The position numbers and the translations under genes are program-made. From NCBI GenBank assembly GCA_016186145.1, contig JACPMF010000007.1, positions 85,302-133,579 on the forward strand: DNA of 48,278 nucleotides, given 5' to 3'. Source of the DNA: Candidatus Sungiibacteriota bacterium (GTDB lineage Bacteria > Patescibacteriota > Minisyncoccia > Sungbacterales > SURF-37). Shown in pieces: positions 3,733 to 48,146 of the stretch. Position 1 is the stretch's first letter, and each line of letters starts with the position of its first letter. The notes beneath the pieces are model-generated. The model did not search any database, had not been told where the DNA came from, and was given only the letters and a program-made list of their open reading frames with translations.

Positions 3733-5457
3733 ATGAGCACTGCCGCCGTTTATAAAGAATACATTGCTCTATTGGTGCTTGCCATATTCGCCTGCGGTCT
3801 TATCATTGCCCCGTTATCAGTTAAGGCGACGGTGCCGACCGCGGAAGTCGTTAATGTACCAATCCTGATAGGCAAGGCGGTTCTTCAACTTGCCGAGCTG
3901 GTATTTCAATCGGCGCAAGAATACGCCCTGGTTCTAAAAGAGTATGTTCTGGATCCGGCGGCAAAGCTTCTTGTTTCATTCATGATCCAAACCCTGACCC
4001 GGGCAGTCATCGGCTGGATCCAAAGCGGTGGAAACACAAATTTCATCTCGAATCTGCAAGCGGCAACAGCAAGGGTTGCGGATGAAGCCGCGGGTGAATT
4101 CCTTAATCAGCTTGCCGGCACAAACCTCTGCCAGCCATTCTCGTTCGACATCAAACTCATCTTCCAGATACCAACCCTGCGGGATAAGCTCACCTGCACC
4201 GCAACGGACATTTTTAGAAATCTGGAAACTTCGTATGAGAACTTCCTCAATAATTTTACCAACGGGGGGTGGATTGCATTCCAAACCGCAATGCTCCCCC
4301 AAAATAACTACATCGATGTTCTTATCAATACGTACGATGAAAAACTTCGCCGTGAATCACGGCAGGTTGCTATACTTGAAAGTCAATACCAAGCGGGGCA
4401 AGGATTTGTTGGTGTCAGAATAAAAAAAGAGCTTTGCGAAGACATCATTGACGACGACGGGGAACCCGCAGCAAGTTGCACTACGCAATACATAAATACA
4501 ACACCGGGAACTCTTGTTTCTGACCAGCTCAAAAAAACTTTCAGTTCCGGCTGGGACCAGGCGGTTGACGCCGACGAAATCGGGGAGGCAATTGATGCAA
4601 TTATTGTAGCACTCGTACAGCAGCTCATCTCTTCGGCACAAGCCGGTCTTGCATCCGGCGACGAAGAAAGCGGAATTTACGATCCCGGCTTTGGAACATC
4701 GGCGCCGCTGCCGCGGCCCTTACCGAACCTCTTTATACCAACAGGACCGGTGCCGACCGCTACAACCACCATCCTTGCCGGAGATACTGTCAGATTCCGC
4801 GGCACGATCCAAAATAACGGTGGGAGAACCGATGAGCTTTTCAACGCGCGTTTTGAAATCGATGTTAACGCCGACGCCTCCGTTGACGCGATCCTTTCCC
4901 CTGATACGCCGGTTGACGGCCTGCTCGACAACGGCTCCATTGACATAACTTCAGGACCATGGATAGCAACGGAAGGCGTCCACCGCATCATACTTTGCGC
5001 CGACCAGCCGATTTCGGTTGTTGCCGAATCCCTCGAAACCGACAACTGCAACGGCGGAAGCTCGGGAACCTTCGCCGTCGGCTCACGACCCGACCTCTTC
5101 ATCTCTCAAAACCCATCAATGTTTTCCGGCGTACCGGTATCCGGATCGAAAATCACATTCGGCGGCATCGTCGGAAACCAAGGTGGGAATACGGCAACTT
5201 CCACATTTGAAAATACATTCCAGATTGACTTCGACAACAATGGCAGTATAGACGTTCAACTCACCCCAAGCCCAACCATTGCAAACCTCACGCCCGGCAC
5301 AACTCAACAGGTACTTTCTAACCAGTGGACCGCCGTCGCCGGCACGCACCGCGTGATTCTCTGCGCGGATACTCCATTCGACACGATCAGAGAAACCAAC
5401 GAAGCGAACAACTGCAATCCCACAGGAACGGGAATATTTACGATAACGACCTTTTAG
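3733..5457 (+). CDS. Secreted/anchored protein with two C-terminal CARDB-like repeats
   Basis: N-terminal hydrophobic signal/anchor. Two ~110-aa repeats each end ...W(I/T)A..G.HR(I/V)ILCAD.P......E.NNCN. Confidence 0.6.
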   Translation: MSTAAVYKEYIALLVLAIFACGLIIAPLSVKATVPTAEVVNVPILIGKAVLQLAELVFQSAQEYALVLKEYVLDPAAKLLVSFMIQTLTRAVIGWIQSGGNTNFISNLQAATARVADEAAGEFLNQLAGTNLCQPFSFDIKLIFQIPTLRDKLTCTATDIFRNLETSYENFLNNFTNGGWIAFQTAMLPQNNYIDVLINTYDEKLRRESRQVAILESQYQAGQGFVGVRIKKELCEDIIDDDGEPAASCTTQYINTTPGTLVSDQLKKTFSSGWDQAVDADEIGEAIDAIIVALVQQLISSAQAGLASGDEESGIYDPGFGTSAPLPRPLPNLFIPTGPVPTATTTILAGDTVRFRGTIQNNGGRTDELFNARFEIDVNADASVDAILSPDTPVDGLLDNGSIDITSGPWIATEGVHRIILCADQPISVVAESLETDNCNGGSSGTFAVGSRPDLFISQNPSMFSGVPVSGSKITFGGIVGNQGGNTATSTFENTFQIDFDNNGSIDVQLTPSPTIANLTPGTTQQVLSNQWTAVAGTHRVILCADTPFDTIRETNEANNCNPTGTGIFTITTF

Positions 5458-5545: not shown

Positions 5546-8500
5546 ATGAAAAACATTTTAAAAAACTTGATTTGCGGGCTTCTCCTTTTCGGTTTCCTTT
5601 TACCGCTGTTTTCGGCAACGCTTATTTTGCCGCACGAAGCTTACGCAGCAGATGTTGGCGTATCAAGTACGGGGGCGGCATCTATCAAGAATGCATTTGA
5701 GAACGCAAGGGGGTGTAGCGGTTGGAACCCACTGAACTGGATAAATTTAGACTGCATTATTCTTAATGTTATTTGGGCCGTAGATAACTTTTTATTAGGA
5801 TGGCTTCTTGACCTCGCATCGGAGCTTTTTAATTGGTCGGTCGAAAAAAACCTAACCGATATTACCGACAACGCATTCGTTACCACCGGCTGGGGAATCG
5901 TCCGCGATATCACCAACCTGTTTTTTATCTTTATCCTTCTTTGGATTGCCCTTGCCACGATTTTTAACATCCCGCGATACGGCGCGAAAGACCTTTTGGC
6001 GACGCTTATTATCTCAGCGCTCTTAATTAACTTCAGCCTGGCCATAGGTGGATTCTTTATTAAATTCTCAAACGCCCTGGCCCTGACTTTTCATGATGCG
6101 ATACGCGCACGCGGGAGTGTTACTTTGCAATTGTTGGACTTCACAAATATTCAAAAATTCACCCTTGGCACCCCCCCAGCTCCGGCAGGAACACCGTCAG
6201 CACAACAAACTCCTACAACACCGCCAACGCCGCAAAGAAAAGATGCGCGTTGTAAACAATTTGCAGAGGCAATTATGGCCGCTATAAAAAGGACGGACCA
6301 GAATGCCGCGACATGGGACACACGCTATAACGAGGCATACAAGACATGCGCAAACGACCCGACAACGGATAAAATATTAGAGAACGAGGTGATCGACCTA
6401 AAAGTTAAAGAGGCAATAAACATAGCGCTTTGGCTCATCATCCTCATACCTATTCTTATTTTTGTGTTTCTTGCAGGGGCCGTATTCTTCTTAATTCGCT
6501 ATCTACAACTGGCAATTCTTCTCGTATTTTCGCCGATTGTTTTTCTTTTCTGGATTCTCCCTGACACAAAACATATCTGGAGCGACTGGTGGAACCGGCT
6601 CATCAAGCAGTCCTTCTTTGCCCCGGCTTATCTTTTCCTACTCTTTTTGACAATAACAACTTTTAATCAGTGGAGCGGCAGGACTATTGTTTCTTCGGGC
6701 ACAACCACTGCCGCGGTAACAAGCGTAAGCCCGTTAGCAGAAAACAAGGAACCGCCTCTTTTGAAAAACGCGGCGATCGGCGGACTTGGAACTGGCCTGC
6801 GAACGCAAGAGGCGCTTGCTGAAGTCACATCACCGGCACCGAAGCCAAAATCAAACGACTTTTTTACACTCGGTTTCGAAATGGTGCTTTTTGTAGCACT
6901 CATGATCATGAACCTGATGGTCGCCCAACAGATGGGAATTAAGTTTGCCGGAACCGTAACGGGATGGGGTAGTCGCGCGACGCGCTGGGGCGGAAGAAAA
7001 GTCCGCGGTGCTGCATACCGCCAAGCAATACGAGCCGGAACAGGAGCTGCACGCGGAGTTACAGAAAGCGCTCTTGGCAGGGCAATGGCGCGCACTCCAG
7101 GATTTCGTGCGCTTCTTACACCGGCTGTTGCAATCCAAAAGCAGCGCGAAGCTATTGACGCAGACCGCGCAAAACGCGTTGCCGAACTTGCCCAGGTTTC
7201 TCCGGTTGCCGCCGCCGAACGGCTTCAGGGCGAAAGCATGGCGGTGAAAGCCGCTTATGCCAAATCGGCAAGCCCTGAAGCGATGAGAAAAATTTTAGGA
7301 GGAATGACCACAAAGAACCCTGATGGAAGCAATAACTACGACGCACAAGAAGAATATGTGCGCCAGATGAATGAAAATGCGGATCGCTACCGCATTGAGG
7401 ACCTCGACAAGAAAGTTGGCGAGGCAATGGCAAAAGACCCGCGCGGTCTTACCCTCCGAACTGTAGCGAAAACCGGCGCCAGCACCAGCGACCCAAATTT
7501 CCAACAAAAAGTTAACAGCTACCTTGCCGGTTTGGACGACAGAGAGTTTGCTCAAACGATGACAGCGAAAACTATTGAGGAAAACCCATACGCGCAAAAT
7601 TACATTGTAAGAAACTTCAAAGACGAACGCCGCATTGGCAACGCCGTTTTGGGCACACCGGAAAAAATAACAGCTTTCAAAAAACTGATAAGCAAACTGG
7701 CCGAAGAAGTAGACCACGGCCTTACATTGCCTTTCTTGCCGCCCGATGAACGAAGCAAAAAAGAAATTGAATATGCATCAACCGCCATGGAAAACGCTGG
7801 CAACCACGATGGCGCGACAGCGCTTGCAACTACACCAATTCTAGAAGTGCTGGCCGGCGCCGGCGTTCGTAAATTCACCCGTGAAGATTACCAACCCCCA
7901 ATCGGCGCCTGTTGCTTGCCAACTGGAAACTGCGTTATAACAACCTCTGTTGATTGCAGGACGCAGGGGGGCAGCTTCATGGGCATTGGGGTTCCATGCA
8001 CGCCCGGACTTTGTTCGCCAACAACACCGCCACCACCTCCGCCGCCGCAACCCGGACCACCACCTCCGGGAGGACCTCCACCACCAACTCCACCAGCACC
8101 GCCGCCTAGAACCCCGCCAAGAACTCCACCGCCCCCAACAACACCACCGACAACACCAAGAGGGCCAACACCACCAACCCCGCCAGCACCTCCAAGCGGA
8201 GGAGCGCTTCCGTCAGCAGCAACAGCCGGATTAAGCCGTCGCGGCTTACCACCACTCCCTGCTCCACCAGCGCTACCTCCTCCAACAACACCTCCGCCGG
8301 CCGGGGGAGGGCTTCCATCAATACTGGAGGCCGCAATGAAACGCCGTGGCTTAAGCCCCCTTCCTCAAACATCGCCAACCACACCATCGGCGCCCATAAC
8401 TCCGTCACCCACACCACCAACGCCAACACCTCCCGCGGGGACCGTTATTCCTCCAACCACGCCAACAACAAGAACGCCGCGACAAAAAACAACCGGAGTT

Positions 8501-38564: not shown

Positions 38565-38632
38565 TTGGCCCCCCTTTAGTATTTTAAAGATCGTAATTAT
38601 ACCTTACGACAAATGCTAATATTTTTCAAGAA

Positions 38633-38780
38633 AGCCGAAGGTGGGAATCCTCTTCCTCTGAAATTTTGCGCGCCCCTCGATATAACTCGGGACAGGCAAA
38701 ATTTCTCCCCCAGAGCCCGGGTTTCCAAAATCGTAAAGCAGTTTACGATTTTGGAATACCCTTCGATTCCCATCTTCACC
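38633..38780. ncRNA. Family-B structured element, copy 1 (three-way junction; tRNA-3'-end-like terminal inverted repeats)
   Basis: P1 is TGGGAATC (38642-38649)/GATTCCCA (38765-38772). There is a 15-bp hairpin TTCCAAAATCGTAAA/TTTACGATTTTGGAA and a 10-bp stem GAAATTTTGC/GCAAAATTTC. About 60 nt are identical to 48016-48137. Confidence 0.5.
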
Positions 38781-38788
38781 TCAACCAT

Positions 38789-38827
38789 CAAAAACAAAAC
38801 CACTTTTTATAGGTGGTTTTGTTTTTG
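38789..38827. terminator. 15-bp perfect hairpin between the tRNA locus and the family-B element
   Basis: CAAAAACAAAACCAC-(9 nt)-GTGGTTTTGTTTTTG. Confidence 0.6.
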
Positions 38828-38829
38828 AT

Positions 38830-39063
38830 AGCCGAAGATGGGAATCGAACCCACATTTCTACTTTACGAAAGTAATGTCCCGATTTTGTTCAAACTTTTG
38901 AAGCCAGGGGTGGGAGTCGAACCCACAACCTCTGCTTTACGAAAGCATTGCTCTGCCATTGAGCTACCCTGGCTGCAAAAGTTTGAACAAAATCGAGGAT
39001 CCTCGATTCGCCAACCGCGCTCCGCGCGGGCGAATCGGGACTCTACCATTGAACTACTTCGGC
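38830..39063 (-). tRNA. Interrupted tRNA-Thr(CGU)-like gene: 23-nt 5' part and 48-nt 3' part separated by a 163-nt insertion that contains another tRNA
   Basis: The 5' part 39063-39041 is GCCGAAGUAGUUCAAUGGUAGAG. The 3' part 38877-38830 is CAUUACUUUCGUAAAGUAGAAAUGUGGGUUCGAUUCCCAUCUUCGGCU. Joined, they give a 71-nt cloverleaf. Confidence 0.65.
38902..38973 (-). tRNA. tRNA-Thr (anticodon CGU), intact, no encoded CCA
   Basis: GCCAGGG UA GCUC AAUGGCA GAGC A AUGCU UUCGUAA AGCAG AGGUU GUGGG UUCGACU CCCAC CCCUGGC U. All four arms pair (one A/G mismatch at 27:43). Confidence 0.92.
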
Positions 39064-39066
39064 ACG

Positions 39067-40380
39067 CTATTCTTTTTTCAACGCCCCCTCAGTATACGTA
39101 TTTCCTGGATTCCACAAGAGCCAGCCACTTGCTCTCGCGTCTTCTGCCGCTCTGATTTGCTGCCTAACCTTTTCGGCATCATAATAGATCCCGCGCACCG
39201 TATCAACCTTTAAGTCGAAATCTTGAATCCACGGCCGCAGCTTTGTTTCGGACTTCTTCTTCGTGTTTGCCTTGTTAATAATTGGCGGCTCTTTGCCCGA
39301 TACGGCGCTCGTGTTCTCTGCTAAAATGGTGGCCGGTGCCGAAGTTGCAAATACGTCTTTTCCTGCGAGGAAGTCGGAAGCGATGACGAGTGAACGGTAT
39401 ACGACCTCATATGGGTGGCTGGAAACGACGTTTTCGGCAACTTCTGCCCGGTAGGGATAGTAGAGCGCCGGGAGACCCCGTTCGGCGTCGGCGGGGACCT
39501 GAAAGCCGCTGTAGTAGTGGCTTGGATAAGTCATAAAGGATATGTAATCAAAGGAGTCGCCCAAGTCTTCAAGCCGTTGGCCGATACCGAGATCGCTTTT
39601 TTGGATCGCTACATAACCGAAAAGGTCTGCCGAAAGAATGATTTGCGGTTTTTCTGTTTTTAATTCGTTTTTTAGGTACTGGAAAAAGTCTCGGAGTACC
39701 TCGTGCCGTTTTTTGGTCTTTTGATCAAACGTGGGATAAACAATGTTCGAAGTATCCCCGTCTGATGGGAAACGGATGTAGTCAAATTGGATCTCGTCGA
39801 AACCGTAGTTAATTGCTTGTTTTGCGACCGCGGCGGTATATTCCCATGCGCCTTGAGATGCCGGGTCGAGCCATGCATTTCCACGCTGGTCGAGCCACAA
39901 TCGTCCATCTGCTCGTTTCAGGGCAAGCTCCGGACTTGCTTTTGCTTTGACCGTGTCGTTGAAGACAACAAGCCGGGCAATAACCCAGATACCTTTTTGG
40001 TGGAATTTTTGTATCAAGCTTCGTAGAGACTCCGGTAAAAATATTCCATCCGTTTCTTTTATATCAATCACTACGCCGTTTAGTTCGGTTGTCTCCAGGA
40101 GTTCGATGACGTCATTTCTAAGGCGTGTTGCCGCTCTTCCTGGATCGTTTGCGACTGTTGTTGTCATATACACTCCCTTTATGTTCTCGGAGCGCTCCCG
40201 AGCCTCTCTGATTAGCTCTTCTACGCTTTTTTCTTCTATCGCATCCGACGCAGTTAATTCTGATACTGCCGCTGGGAGGCTTTCGGGGATAAGGTTTTTA
40301 GTGAAGCGGAATGCAAAAAACACAATCACGGCGGTCGCGATGCTTAAAAACAAAAGAATTCTTATTCTTATTGGGTTCAC
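39067..40380 (-). CDS. Putative glycoside hydrolase (DUF4015-like TIM-barrel)
   Basis: N-terminal TM segment. ...GVYMTT...LNGVVIDIKE...WLDPASQGAWEYTAAVAKQAINYGFDEIQFDYIRFPSDG.... Confidence 0.6.
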   Translation of the reverse strand: MNPIRIRILLFLSIATAVIVFFAFRFTKNLIPESLPAAVSELTASDAIEEKSVEELIREARERSENIKGVYMTTTVANDPGRAATRLRNDVIELLETTELNGVVIDIKETDGIFLPESLRSLIQKFHQKGIWVIARLVVFNDTVKAKASPELALKRADGRLWLDQRGNAWLDPASQGAWEYTAAVAKQAINYGFDEIQFDYIRFPSDGDTSNIVYPTFDQKTKKRHEVLRDFFQYLKNELKTEKPQIILSADLFGYVAIQKSDLGIGQRLEDLGDSFDYISFMTYPSHYYSGFQVPADAERGLPALYYPYRAEVAENVVSSHPYEVVYRSLVIASDFLAGKDVFATSAPATILAENTSAVSGKEPPIINKANTKKKSETKLRPWIQDFDLKVDTVRGIYYDAEKVRQQIRAAEDARASGWLLWNPGNTYTEGALKKE

Positions 40381-45483: not shown

Positions 45484-45542
45484 AAAAGGACGGTTCGATT
45501 TACGATGAATATAAATGGGCACATCTGGACTCGAACCAGCGT

Positions 45543-45615
45543 TCCCGGGCGTAGAACTGCGCCGCTTTCGGCGTGCTCGTTATGCCCGCTCGAAGCAAAG
45601 ACATTTGCTTCTCGC
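45543..45615 (-). repeat. Structured module 2, copy b
   Basis: GCGAG-[GAAGCAAA UGUC UUUGCUUC]-GAGCGGGCAUAACGAGCA-[CGCCG AAA GCGGCG]-CAGUUCUACGCCCGGGA. Confidence 0.7.
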
Positions 45616-45642
45616 CCTCTGCAATGCCTGCCCCGTTACAAA

Positions 45643-45828
45643 TGGGCGTAGTAGGGATCGAACCTACGACCTTTCGCATGCTTGCCCGCCCAAATTTCTG
45701 AACAATGGACGGTGCAGGATTCGAACCTGCGGCCCCTGCAATGTGAATACAGTGCTCTACCGCTGAGCTAACCGTCCAGAAATTTAGGCGGGTGAAAAGC
45801 GAACGCTCTGCCACTGAGCCATACGCCC
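45643..45828 (-). tRNA. Split tRNA with anticodon loop UUUUCAC (UUC, Glu-type): 37-nt + 35-nt halves separated by a 114-nt insertion carrying tRNA-Val
   Basis: Halves are 45828-45792 and 45677-45643. Joined they read GGGCGUA UG GCUC AGUGGCA GAGC G UUCGC UUUUCAC GCGAA AGGUC GUAGG UUCGAUC CCUAC UACGCCC A. Every stem is Watson-Crick. Confidence 0.7.
45706..45777 (-). tRNA. tRNA-Val (anticodon CAC), intact, no encoded CCA
   Basis: GGACGGU UA GCUC AGCGGUA GAGC A CUGUA UUCACAU UGCAG GGGCC GCAGG UUCGAAU CCUGC ACCGUCC A. Confidence 0.93.
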
Positions 45829-45933
45829 ATATCCATTTGTAACGGGGTGAAAGTCCCGACGGCTCCGCCGTCGCGGATCCTCGATTTTGCAGCTCCGACG
45901 TCAAGCTGGAGGCAAAATCGGGACAGCGCTCTA

Positions 45934-46015
45934 TCCCGGGCATGGTACTGCGCTGTCCGACTAAAGTCAGACTGCTCGTAATGCCCGCGAGAATCCTATT
46001 TAAACGGATTCTCGC
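45934..46015 (-). repeat. Structured module 2, copy a
   Basis: GCGAG-extended hairpin GAGAAUCC GUUUAAAUA GGAUUCUC-GCGGGCAUUACGAGCA-[GUCUGAC UUUA GUCGGAC]-AGCGCAGUACCAUGCCCGGGA. Confidence 0.7.
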
Positions 46016-46056
46016 CCAACTGAGCTATGTGCCCTTAACAACTAGAAAGCTAACAT

Positions 46057-48003: not shown

Positions 48004-48146
48004 GTGAGCGGGTAAGGGGAATCCTCTTCCTCCGAAATTTTGCGCGTGCCTCCGGCACAGGCAAAGTTTCTCCTCCAGAGCCCGGGTTTCCAAAATCGTA
48101 AAGCAGTTTACGATTTTGGAATACCCTTCGATTCCCCCATTATCAC
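48004..48146. ncRNA. Family-B structured element, copy 2
   Basis: P1 is GGGGAATC (48016-48023)/GATTCCCC (48130-48137). Same 15-bp hairpin as copy 1. The P3 tip is replaced by GTGCC-TCC-GGCAC. Terminator-like hairpins flank it at 47973-47996 and 48161-48189. Confidence 0.5.

Follow-up and report, generated by a model that had tools for sequence, protein, structure and literature searches.

A tRNA-Thr gene nested within a split tRNA-Thr gene of a Sungiibacteriota genome: probable replacement of a resident gene by a cargo-bearing two-hairpin element

We describe a nested pair of tRNA genes in a 48,278-nucleotide stretch of DNA from a Candidatus Sungiibacteriota bacterium (GenBank assembly GCA_016186145.1, contig JACPMF010000007.1, positions 85,302 to 133,579), which is referred to below as the window. 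A tRNA-Thr(CGU) gene is divided between G24 and C25 by a 163-nt insertion (38878-39040), and this insertion encloses a second, intact tRNA-Thr(CGU) gene (38902-38973, minus strand). The insertion is a member of a dispersed family of pseudo-palindromic two-hairpin DNA elements (2HE), and the nest is probably the product of gene replacement at the DNA level by a cargo-bearing mobile element; the working gene would then be the inner tRNA, and the halves around it a recent relic. The sequence findings behind this reading are the family membership of the insertion, an empty allele in a sister sample, clustered changes in the flank, the in-frame persistence of the element within protein genes, a nuclease gene in the same position of the element as the tRNA here and the intactness of only the innermost tRNA of a nest. 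Loci outside the window are cited by L numbers, and a caret marks an insertion point or junction.

Layout of the nested tRNA-Thr locus

Read on the minus strand, the locus starts with the 5' fragment of the outer tRNA (39041-39063, positions 1-24, GCCGAAGTAGTTCAATGGTAGAG), assigned from the sequence and from ARAGORN on the joined form; its 5' end begins 4 nt past the stop codon of a gene for a DUF4015 protein. The whole insertion that follows (38878-39040) is a 2HE with tRNA cargo, as judged by its conserved termini and core and by its fold, and the 3' fragment of the outer tRNA (38830-38877, positions 25-73; sequence and stem-pair count) closes the gene. An earlier reading of the locus, made without database searches and called here the sequence-only reading, had proposed these two outer pieces, an insertion starting with TCCCGATT and ending with AATCGGGA and an insertion site in the 3' strand of the D stem, and direct reading of the minus strand agrees with it on each of these points. 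It had also proposed that the joined pieces form a 71-nt cloverleaf, and ARAGORN does report a tRNA-Thr(cgt) across the junction once 38878-39040 is deleted, with stems of 18 Watson-Crick and three G-U pairs and no mismatches. As encoded, the outer tRNA is not a contiguous cloverleaf and is recognized only with the insertion removed.

The inner tRNA, which had been described as intact, scores 67 bits against the Rfam tRNA model (gathering threshold 29), and ARAGORN places a Thr(cgt) at 38900-38974. Its CCA is not encoded, and we presume it to be the working gene. The perfect 20-bp inverted repeat reported around it is present (38976-38995 and 38881-38900), with CA before G1 and a single T after the discriminator as the 1-2 nt between the helix and the acceptor stem; the repeat runs on into the acceptor stem to give a 29-nt repeat that is 97 % complementary. 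Its two arms are the strands of the hairpin-2 stalk, the 5' strand being CGATTTTGTTCAAACTTTTG (38976-38995, minus strand; inverted repeat and fold), one side of what we call the cargo bay, and the 3' strand CAAAAGTTTGAACAAAATCG (38881-38900, minus strand; inverted repeat), after which the element ends with GGA (38878-38880). Hairpin 1, TCC-CGATTCGCC..GGCGAATCG-A-GGA (39000-39040, minus strand), was found by sequence, fold and inverted-repeat search, and the conserved core AATCGAGGATCC (38997-39008, minus strand) lies within the perfect palindrome AATCGAGGA^TCCTCGATT. In its minimum free energy (MFE) fold (-111 kcal/mol, z = -9.9) the 234-nt stretch forms the acceptor stem of the outer tRNA, hairpin 1 and a stalk of 22 bp on which the inner cloverleaf sits. 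The inner and outer tRNAs are only 78 % identical and differ in their acceptor stems. ARAGORN and Rfam find just two tRNAs in the 48 kb, this Thr(CGU) and a Val(CAC) (45706-45777, minus strand).

The empty allele and the resident tRNA

A Logan contig from a sister sample, L204, matches positions 40681-39042 of the window at 99.7 % and encodes a DUF4015 protein that is 100 % identical. It reads GCCGAAGTAGTTCAATGGCAGAAC^ATTAC, i.e. an uninterrupted outer tRNA with neither the insertion nor the inner tRNA (...GGCAGAAC^ATTAC at the site itself), so that an empty allele, the existence of which had been raised as a point to check, does occur. In the relatives L003 and L004 (60-63 % protein identity) a plain tRNA-Thr(CGU) follows the DUF4015 gene, and the metagenomic loci L124-127, L132, L135 and L139 have a single uninterrupted tRNA-Thr(CGU) in the same place; the DUF4015 identity across the relatives compared is 43-80 %. 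No 2HE is found at the site in L002 (DUF4015 80 % identical) as far as its contig reaches. The outer acceptor stem in the window, GCCGAAG, is that of the resident tRNA in L139. Because the empty allele and the relatives have the outer tRNA only, the outer tRNA is the resident and the inner tRNA is the newcomer. The sequence-only reading had regarded relatives with the inner tRNA alone as the outcome that would speak against it; the reverse is seen, with relatives carrying only the outer tRNA.

The comparison with L204 covers the 5' flank only. All five mismatches fall within the last ~55 nt before the insertion site, the remaining ~1585 nt being identical; they are A/G at the gene end, TAA/TAG at the stop codon, CCT/CGT, GGC/GGT and GAA/GAG. 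The probability that all five would fall in such a ~55-nt stretch by chance is ~(55/1640)^5, or roughly 4e-8. The cluster resembles a tract of co-conversion, for which a diverged donor would already have had ...GGTAGAG^2HE, and this flank is also present at 2HE insertions in L048 and L024. Judged from these alleles, the insertion event is recent and polymorphic in the population. We also observed a conserved hairpin, GAGCGGTAT(A/G)ATTACACCGCTC, with a TATAAT-like box ~10 nt before the resident tRNA-Thr in L003 and L004; the window does not have it, and the tRNA there directly adjoins the stop codon of the DUF4015 gene.

A family of two-hairpin elements

The family was scanned for in 185,579 species genomes with the pattern TCCCGATT-N(12-42)-AATCGAKGATCC, which matched more than 118 stretches. 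Among the matches listed, most come from Patescibacteria (Saccharibacteria, Yanofsky-, Sung-, Magasanik- and Buchananbacteria and Paceibacterota), further hosts are Ignavibacteriota, Stahlbacteria, WOR-3, Bacteroidota and a few proteobacterial metagenome-assembled genomes, and 76 complete copies could be parsed, mostly of 54-107 nt. The element has the outline TCCCGA..TCGAGGATCC.CGA..TCGGGA and the consensus yTG^TCC-CGA(hairpin 1)TCG-A-GGA TCC-n-CGA(hairpin 2)TCG-GGA^CAa, the flanks showing a preference that is itself palindromic (yTG^element^CAa). In the 76 copies the termini and core are conserved and the hairpin interiors differ yet remain paired. Many copies match on both strands, since the element is its own approximate reverse complement. 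Hairpin 1 of the Thr insertion shares 91 % identity with the hairpin of a 2HE in L120, and hairpin 2 is a long stalk with the tRNA at its tip; the start and core (TCCCGATT ... AATCGAGGATCC) recur at the Val locus of the window and at the orthologous Val locus of L004.

Two traits of MITEs (transposable elements of miniature size with inverted repeats) and of Rickettsia palindromic elements (RPEs) are present: many dispersed copies with conserved inverted termini, and a presence/absence polymorphism (L204, 99.7 % identical and lacking the insertion). A target-site duplication is not; no direct repeat surrounds the Thr insertion, and its excision restores the tRNA exactly. Rfam contains no family for 2HE. 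As a separate observation, L088 (1737-6324) carries six long-hairpin variants of the element in 4.6 kb, spaced ~700-1000 nt apart and each following ..CCTAACGG..CTGA, a series that looks like an array within repeated genes or a repeated module.

In L017, L068 and L099 the element is 322-329 nt long and has an antisense open reading frame (ORF) of ~85 amino acids at the tip of hairpin 2, on a stalk of up to 27 bp. The ORF encodes a GIY-YIG domain (Pfam PF01541, E from 1e-17 down to 3e-19), the nearest solved structures of which are UPF0213 proteins and the structure-specific nuclease SLX1. GIY-YIG genes are also found in L016 and L098, where each separates a broken tRNA from an intact one that has the same identity; a nuclease gene on some copies, the mark of a homing cassette, is thus seen in the family. 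Because the same bay holds the GIY-YIG ORF in these autonomous-looking copies, the tRNA in the window sits in the position of the nuclease gene. In L094 the hairpin-2 bay contains a Ser-type tRNA, and the whole lies within an apparent second Ser tRNA.

In-frame copies within protein genes

Copies of 2HE within protein genes bear on whether the element is removed from RNA. We removed each of them in silico and noted the longest frame that was open over the junction; the host genes were confirmed by Pfam. The hosts are UvrA, ScpA, an HhH-GPD glycosylase, LeuRS (two orthologous copies), a PolB-exo-like nuclease and Fmt, and the copies (L116 421-511, L054 4958-5018, L040 3423-3495, L044 7330-7387, L023 4792-4849, L067 3409-3493 and L083 1515-1575) measure 90, 60, 72, 57, 57, 84 and 60 nt; all of these lengths are divisible by three, and all copies are free of stop codons in the host frame. 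Both properties hold for six of six in-gene copies with flanks of at least 80 codons and for 14 of 43 intergenic copies. An intron would escape such a constraint on length and frame; the element is therefore carried into the protein and not spliced, and in-frame persistence of this kind is a hallmark of RPEs. The copies add 19-30 residues, often KSRILD, IEDPRF or NRGSSI as translations of the core. Folding of the sense strand is more stable in six copies and less stable in 12, and this lack of bias is what is expected for a DNA palindrome, unlike an RNA structure that tolerates G-U pairs.

Several other candidates were tried and set aside. A bulge-helix-bulge intron was sought by inspecting both registers and the MFE fold; there is no 4-bp exon-intron helix, and the ends of the Thr insertion pair with each other or within the hairpins. 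For a group I intron, cmscan on 38600-39300 at E ≤ 10 gave no intron family, and only ~90 nt of the insertion are left once the tRNA is subtracted; Rfam, at gathering thresholds and at E ≤ 10, returned nothing but tRNA, with no ribozyme or other RNA family. Integration of the integrase type was rejected on a 163-nt insert that has no ORF and a geometry that is nested and not tandem. The orphan 3' halves of tRNAs in L162 and L146 resembled att scars but sit only tens of nucleotides apart. The G-U pairs of the outer tRNA (three, versus 0-1 in orthologues) were considered as a sign of decay, but one of them derives from the flank tract and the count is too weak to use.

Nests at other loci

That the architecture recurs, as the sequence-only reading had held from its two examples, is borne out by its presence in many independent assemblies, which excludes chance. 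About a dozen other nests could be resolved, and each has exactly one uninterrupted copy, innermost or adjacent, of the same identity as the broken ones; the outer copies gather further insertions or lose a half. In L087 there are three tRNA-Ala(UGC) layers. The D loop of each outer layer has a 2HE at GTTG^GTAG, and its anticodon loop has a 2HE with cargo exactly at UUUG^CAA, the preferred target of the family. The outer tRNA-Ala copy of L075 has, in addition, a 2HE in its T loop and a CCTGCC/GGCAGG hairpin; L048 combines a four-layer tRNA-Lys nest with a tRNA-Ala nest; L016 and L098 (Arg and Met) show a dead tRNA, a GIY-YIG gene and a live tRNA; and in L076, L081, L089 and L008 (Glu, Ile, Thr and Val) a 5' fragment and a 2HE lie beside an intact gene. 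In L003 (1785-1837, minus strand) the outer 5' half has been lost and an orphan 3' half stands alone after the intact tRNA-Val. The Val nests of the window and of L004 likewise keep only their innermost tRNA intact. The pattern, as far as these loci can be read, is one of serial gene replacement with relics and not of routine splicing.

Some of these loci have further features. In L162 (750-930), L146 (1550-1850) and L003, intact Arg, Ile and Val tRNAs have one or two orphan 3' halves behind them, each half preceded by ..GGGCAGGy, the 3' strand of the CCTGCC/GGCAGG hairpin family, and hairpins of this family are also found within interrupted tRNAs (L075, L087 and L101). A protein-gene counterpart of the tRNA fragments is seen in L013 (~5650-5790) and L092 (~3940-4080), where a 12-codon 5' fragment of LeuRS (MKYNPQKIEKKW and MKKYDPSKIEKKW) and a 2HE at ..TGG^CA.. 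lie immediately upstream of the intact LeuRS start.

The window itself contains a second nest, at 45.5-46.0 kb, to which the same architecture had been ascribed. The nesting is there (45516-46034, minus strand; ARAGORN, Rfam, sequence and fold), but the locus is more complex than had been described, with three tRNA layers and extra hairpin inserts. The innermost, intact tRNA-Val(CAC) (45706-45777, minus strand), flanked by a stalk, interrupts the anticodon loop of a middle Val-like tRNA (45828-45643, minus strand), which is orthologous to the tRNA-Val(CAC) that L003 has in intact form. The middle tRNA is held by a stalk-flanked anticodon insert of the outermost Val-like tRNA, which further contains a 70-nt 2HE after position 29 and two inserts that we call type B. 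This second 2HE of the window (45854-45923, minus strand) lies in the anticodon stem, has no cargo and has an orthologous copy in L004. At each level the stalk-flanked insert starts after ..UUUUCA/UUUCA and ends with ..GCAU. In the outermost tRNA the T stem contains one mismatch (G49-A65) and the anticodon stem is shortened; on enumeration of the splice junctions the body of this tRNA is recognized with any loop and its identity is ambiguous, UUCAC^AU, Val(CAC), being the best fit. The locus is identical in three other samples. The type B inserts, two-hairpin structures different from 2HE (45936-46015 in the D loop and ~45545-45615 before the T arm, minus strand) are built of a GCGAGAA..TTCTCGC hairpin followed by GGGCATnACGAGCA..GCGCAGT..GCCCGG; neither the window nor the other loci compared contain a further copy, and Rfam has no match.

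Weighing the explanations

In the replacement that we propose, a 2HE bearing a foreign tRNA-Thr(CGU) on a 20-22-bp stalk, together with a short donor flank, would have replaced the resident allele at the DNA level, leaving the resident tRNA-Thr(CGU) gene cut between G24 and C25. Entry would have been by transposition or homing, followed by homologous recombination with the tRNA halves and neighbouring DNA as arms, and the mover may be a GIY-YIG/UPF0213 nuclease acting in trans that is structure-specific or prefers TTG^CAA-like sites. Transcription of the inner tRNA would start at the resident promoter or result from read-through, and ordinary processing would free it from the stalk, with RNase III cutting the long helix and RNase P, trimming of the 3' end and addition of CCA completing the molecule. 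The outer pieces would be the recently inactivated resident gene and would have no function. Insertion into a tRNA gene is tolerated on this model because the element supplies a replacement of the same identity, and nests are always like-in-like and can be stacked because survival needs the same tRNA to be supplied and the tRNA halves give homology for spread.

A number of observations weigh against the proposal. The filled Thr allele is seen in the window alone, the 48 kb of the window contain no GIY-YIG nuclease gene, and the cloverleaf formed by the outer halves is still flawless, which is expected if the event is recent but expected of a functional gene as well. In L112 a cargo-less 2HE interrupts a tRNA-Glu at the edge of the locus with no replacement visible, the sole case that does not resolve, and the first entry of a tRNA into the cargo bay is left unexplained by the model. 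The Val locus raises the strongest questions about the outer copies: the halves of its outermost tRNA are ~85-88 % alike between the window and L004 with two compensatory changes (5-68 and 27-43), and the 2HE shared by the two loci has diverged strongly within hairpin 1 while the tRNA halves are conserved. Selection on the outer tRNA would fit this conservation. It would also be explained by spread of the cassette between lineages, independent or horizontal, with the tRNA halves as arms, by gene conversion involving the inner copy, in which the same 27-43 pair specific to the lineage is found both in the window and in L004, or by exchange of hairpin interiors among 2HE copies. Because sequence does not decide between these causes, we leave a small probability to rescue at the RNA level.

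Such rescue would make the outer gene a true intron-containing or split tRNA: the 163 nt would be excised from the transcript, the outer halves ligated and a second tRNA-Thr(CGU) released from the intron, with the UCCCGA/UCGGGA terminal helix aligning the splice sites for some endonuclease and a ligase such as RtcB. A mature RNA of ~71-74 nt with the junction ...AAUGGUAGAG^CAUUACU... would then be expected. The perfect outer cloverleaf, a 6-8-bp terminal helix that brings G24 and C25 together, the precise positions of 2HE in several tRNAs, the missing spare copy in L112 and the conserved outermost Val tRNA with its compensatory changes all favour it, and we nevertheless regard it as unlikely. 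The element stays in frame in protein genes, so that there is no general removal of it from RNA; it is a strand-symmetric palindrome with no sense-strand advantage and matches neither a bulge-helix-bulge motif nor a ribozyme or group I intron; every resolved nest has an uninterrupted copy of the same identity, while the outer copies gain insertions or lose halves; and the empty allele marks the inner tRNA as the newcomer. The sequence-only reading had taken the outer parts for a split tRNA joined or co-functioning at the RNA level, and that claim is not supported, given the in-frame copies in genes, the empty allele, the lack of bulge-helix-bulge and group I features and the intactness of the innermost tRNA only. 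It is quite improbable, too, that 2HE acts additionally as an RNA-level intron in tRNAs, with a bacterial endonuclease and ligase pair that would recognize its terminal helix and two mature tRNA-Thr(CGU) from the nested gene, one spliced from the outer halves and the other set free from the intron; if it did, there would be a new bacterial tRNA splicing pathway and a class of tRNA-bearing mobile introns.

A sharper version of gene replacement, which does not contradict it and which we put forward tentatively, is a homing drive: the GIY-YIG nuclease of the autonomous copies would cut uninterrupted tRNA alleles, repair would copy in the cassette (tRNA arms, 2HE and replacement tRNA), and renewed cutting of the intact inner tRNA would add further layers. 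GIY-YIG genes that occupy the cargo bay or separate a dead tRNA copy from a live one are consistent with this, as are the flank tract by the insertion, which resembles co-conversion, and the preferred target TTG^CAA within the anticodon loop of Ala(UGC), the Ala nests being three deep. Set against these are a window with no nuclease gene, a cleavage specificity that is presumed, the transposon-like presence of 2HE at many unrelated sites and a Thr site, GAA^CAT, that matches the target consensus only in part. An assembly artefact, in which the repeat-rich 2HE produced a chimeric join that mimics a nest, is very improbable. Short-read contigs do end near these loci and no independent contig across the filled Thr allele was retrieved, but the flanks join to an exact tRNA with base precision, three other samples have an identical Val nest and the same architecture is present in many unrelated assemblies.

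Surroundings of the nest

Directly 3' of the outer tRNA lies a perfect 17-bp hairpin (38787-38829, minus strand), found by inverted-repeat search; it has the look of a terminator and does not meet the scan criteria. Beyond it, tRNA-Thr debris includes 16 nt copied from the outer T arm and acceptor in inverted orientation (38762-38777), a perfect 15-bp hairpin that encloses an 11-nt piece of the inner anticodon arm (38723-38756) and an orphan 3' end, GATTCCCACCTTCGGCT (38649-38633, minus strand). The debris at 38633-38785 suggests an earlier layer of replacement at the same locus. A repeat of ~100 nt with T-arm-like ends (GGGAATCGAAGG .. GAGGATTCCC) occurs twice in the window (38643-38756 and 48017-48121, 85 % identical), and the short-read contigs that cover the downstream gene in four samples all begin at 38739, inside this repeat, and none reaches the tRNA. 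The window is chromosomal DNA of a bacterium of the Patescibacteria, and genes neighbouring the nest are those for RNase Y, PNPase, an ECF sigma factor, an NYN protein and the DUF4015 glycosidase; the best named relatives of the last are from Sungbacteria and Parcubacteria.

Relation to known systems

Of the systems compared, the RPEs, reportedly described by Ogata and coworkers in 2000 as in-frame translated insertions in protein genes, come close. RPEs and bacterial MITE-like repeats (review: PMC10969869) share with 2HE the form of short dispersed palindromes, the setting of reduced genomes, in-frame translated insertions, occurrence in RNA genes as well and a majority of copies without a transposase. 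Their sequences are unrelated, and 2HE differs in its strict self-complementary two-hairpin design with a GGATCC core; only 2HE has GIY-YIG genes in autonomous-looking copies and whole-tRNA cargo leading to like-in-like nests. Integrative elements that target tRNA genes, including the one that disrupts an archaeal tRNA-Thr (PMC3293823), likewise keep function through the sequence that they carry and leave tRNA fragments as relics, and the archaeal case shares with the window a population heterogeneity at a tRNA-Thr locus. Such elements are kilobases long, encode integrases or recombinases, restore the 3' part alone and leave tandem fragments, whereas the insertion here has 163 nt, no integrase or ORF, a whole tRNA in a hairpin and a nested arrangement, so that the test for an integrase-borne island is negative.

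Archaeal non-canonical, multiple-intron and split tRNAs (reviews: PMC4090602, PMC4033280) resemble the present case in the odd positions of interruption (D arm), in having several interruptions per gene and in the mobility of the interrupting sequences. They have the bulge-helix-bulge motifs of EndA splicing, two 3-nt bulges with a 4-bp helix between them, of which there are none here, and the host here is bacterial; 2HE is, in addition, not spliced from mRNAs, and beside the outer gene there is an intact copy. Group I introns with GIY-YIG genes in bacterial and phage tRNA genes (PMC3984707) have in common with it the tRNA target and the GIY-YIG association; their spread goes along with co-conversion of flanks, to which the flank tract here may correspond. 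In contrast to them, 2HE has no ribozyme core (P3-P9), is far too short and interrupts the D stem and not the anticodon loop, and function is kept by a spare gene and not by self-splicing. A search of the literature for nested or disrupted tRNAs of the candidate phyla radiation (CPR), for the motif strings and for GIY-YIG/UPF0213 palindromes, with subscription journals outside its coverage, found neither 2HE nor like-in-like nests described. In-frame palindromic elements and mobile elements that repair their target tRNA gene are known kinds; we found no published account of a two-hairpin element of 55-110 nt with a bay for nuclease or tRNA cargo, or of stacked like-in-like tRNA genes.

Significance

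For annotation, standard tRNA finders see the innermost gene only, outer fragments can mimic split or intron-containing tRNAs, and in-frame 2HE copies add peptide inserts to the housekeeping proteins of CPR bacteria. The link between a small GIY-YIG family (UPF0213, related to SLX1) and a mobile DNA palindrome gives this uncharacterised family a possible, testable role. The nests also provide a bacterial counterpart to the archaeal debate on the origin of disrupted tRNA genes. On the reading that we prefer, replacement of the resident gene by a cargo-bearing element, a tiny mobile element can colonize essential single-copy genes of very small genomes by carrying a spare copy of the gene that it destroys, and the outcome of such colonization would be the stacked tRNA genes and trails of tRNA fragments seen at these loci.

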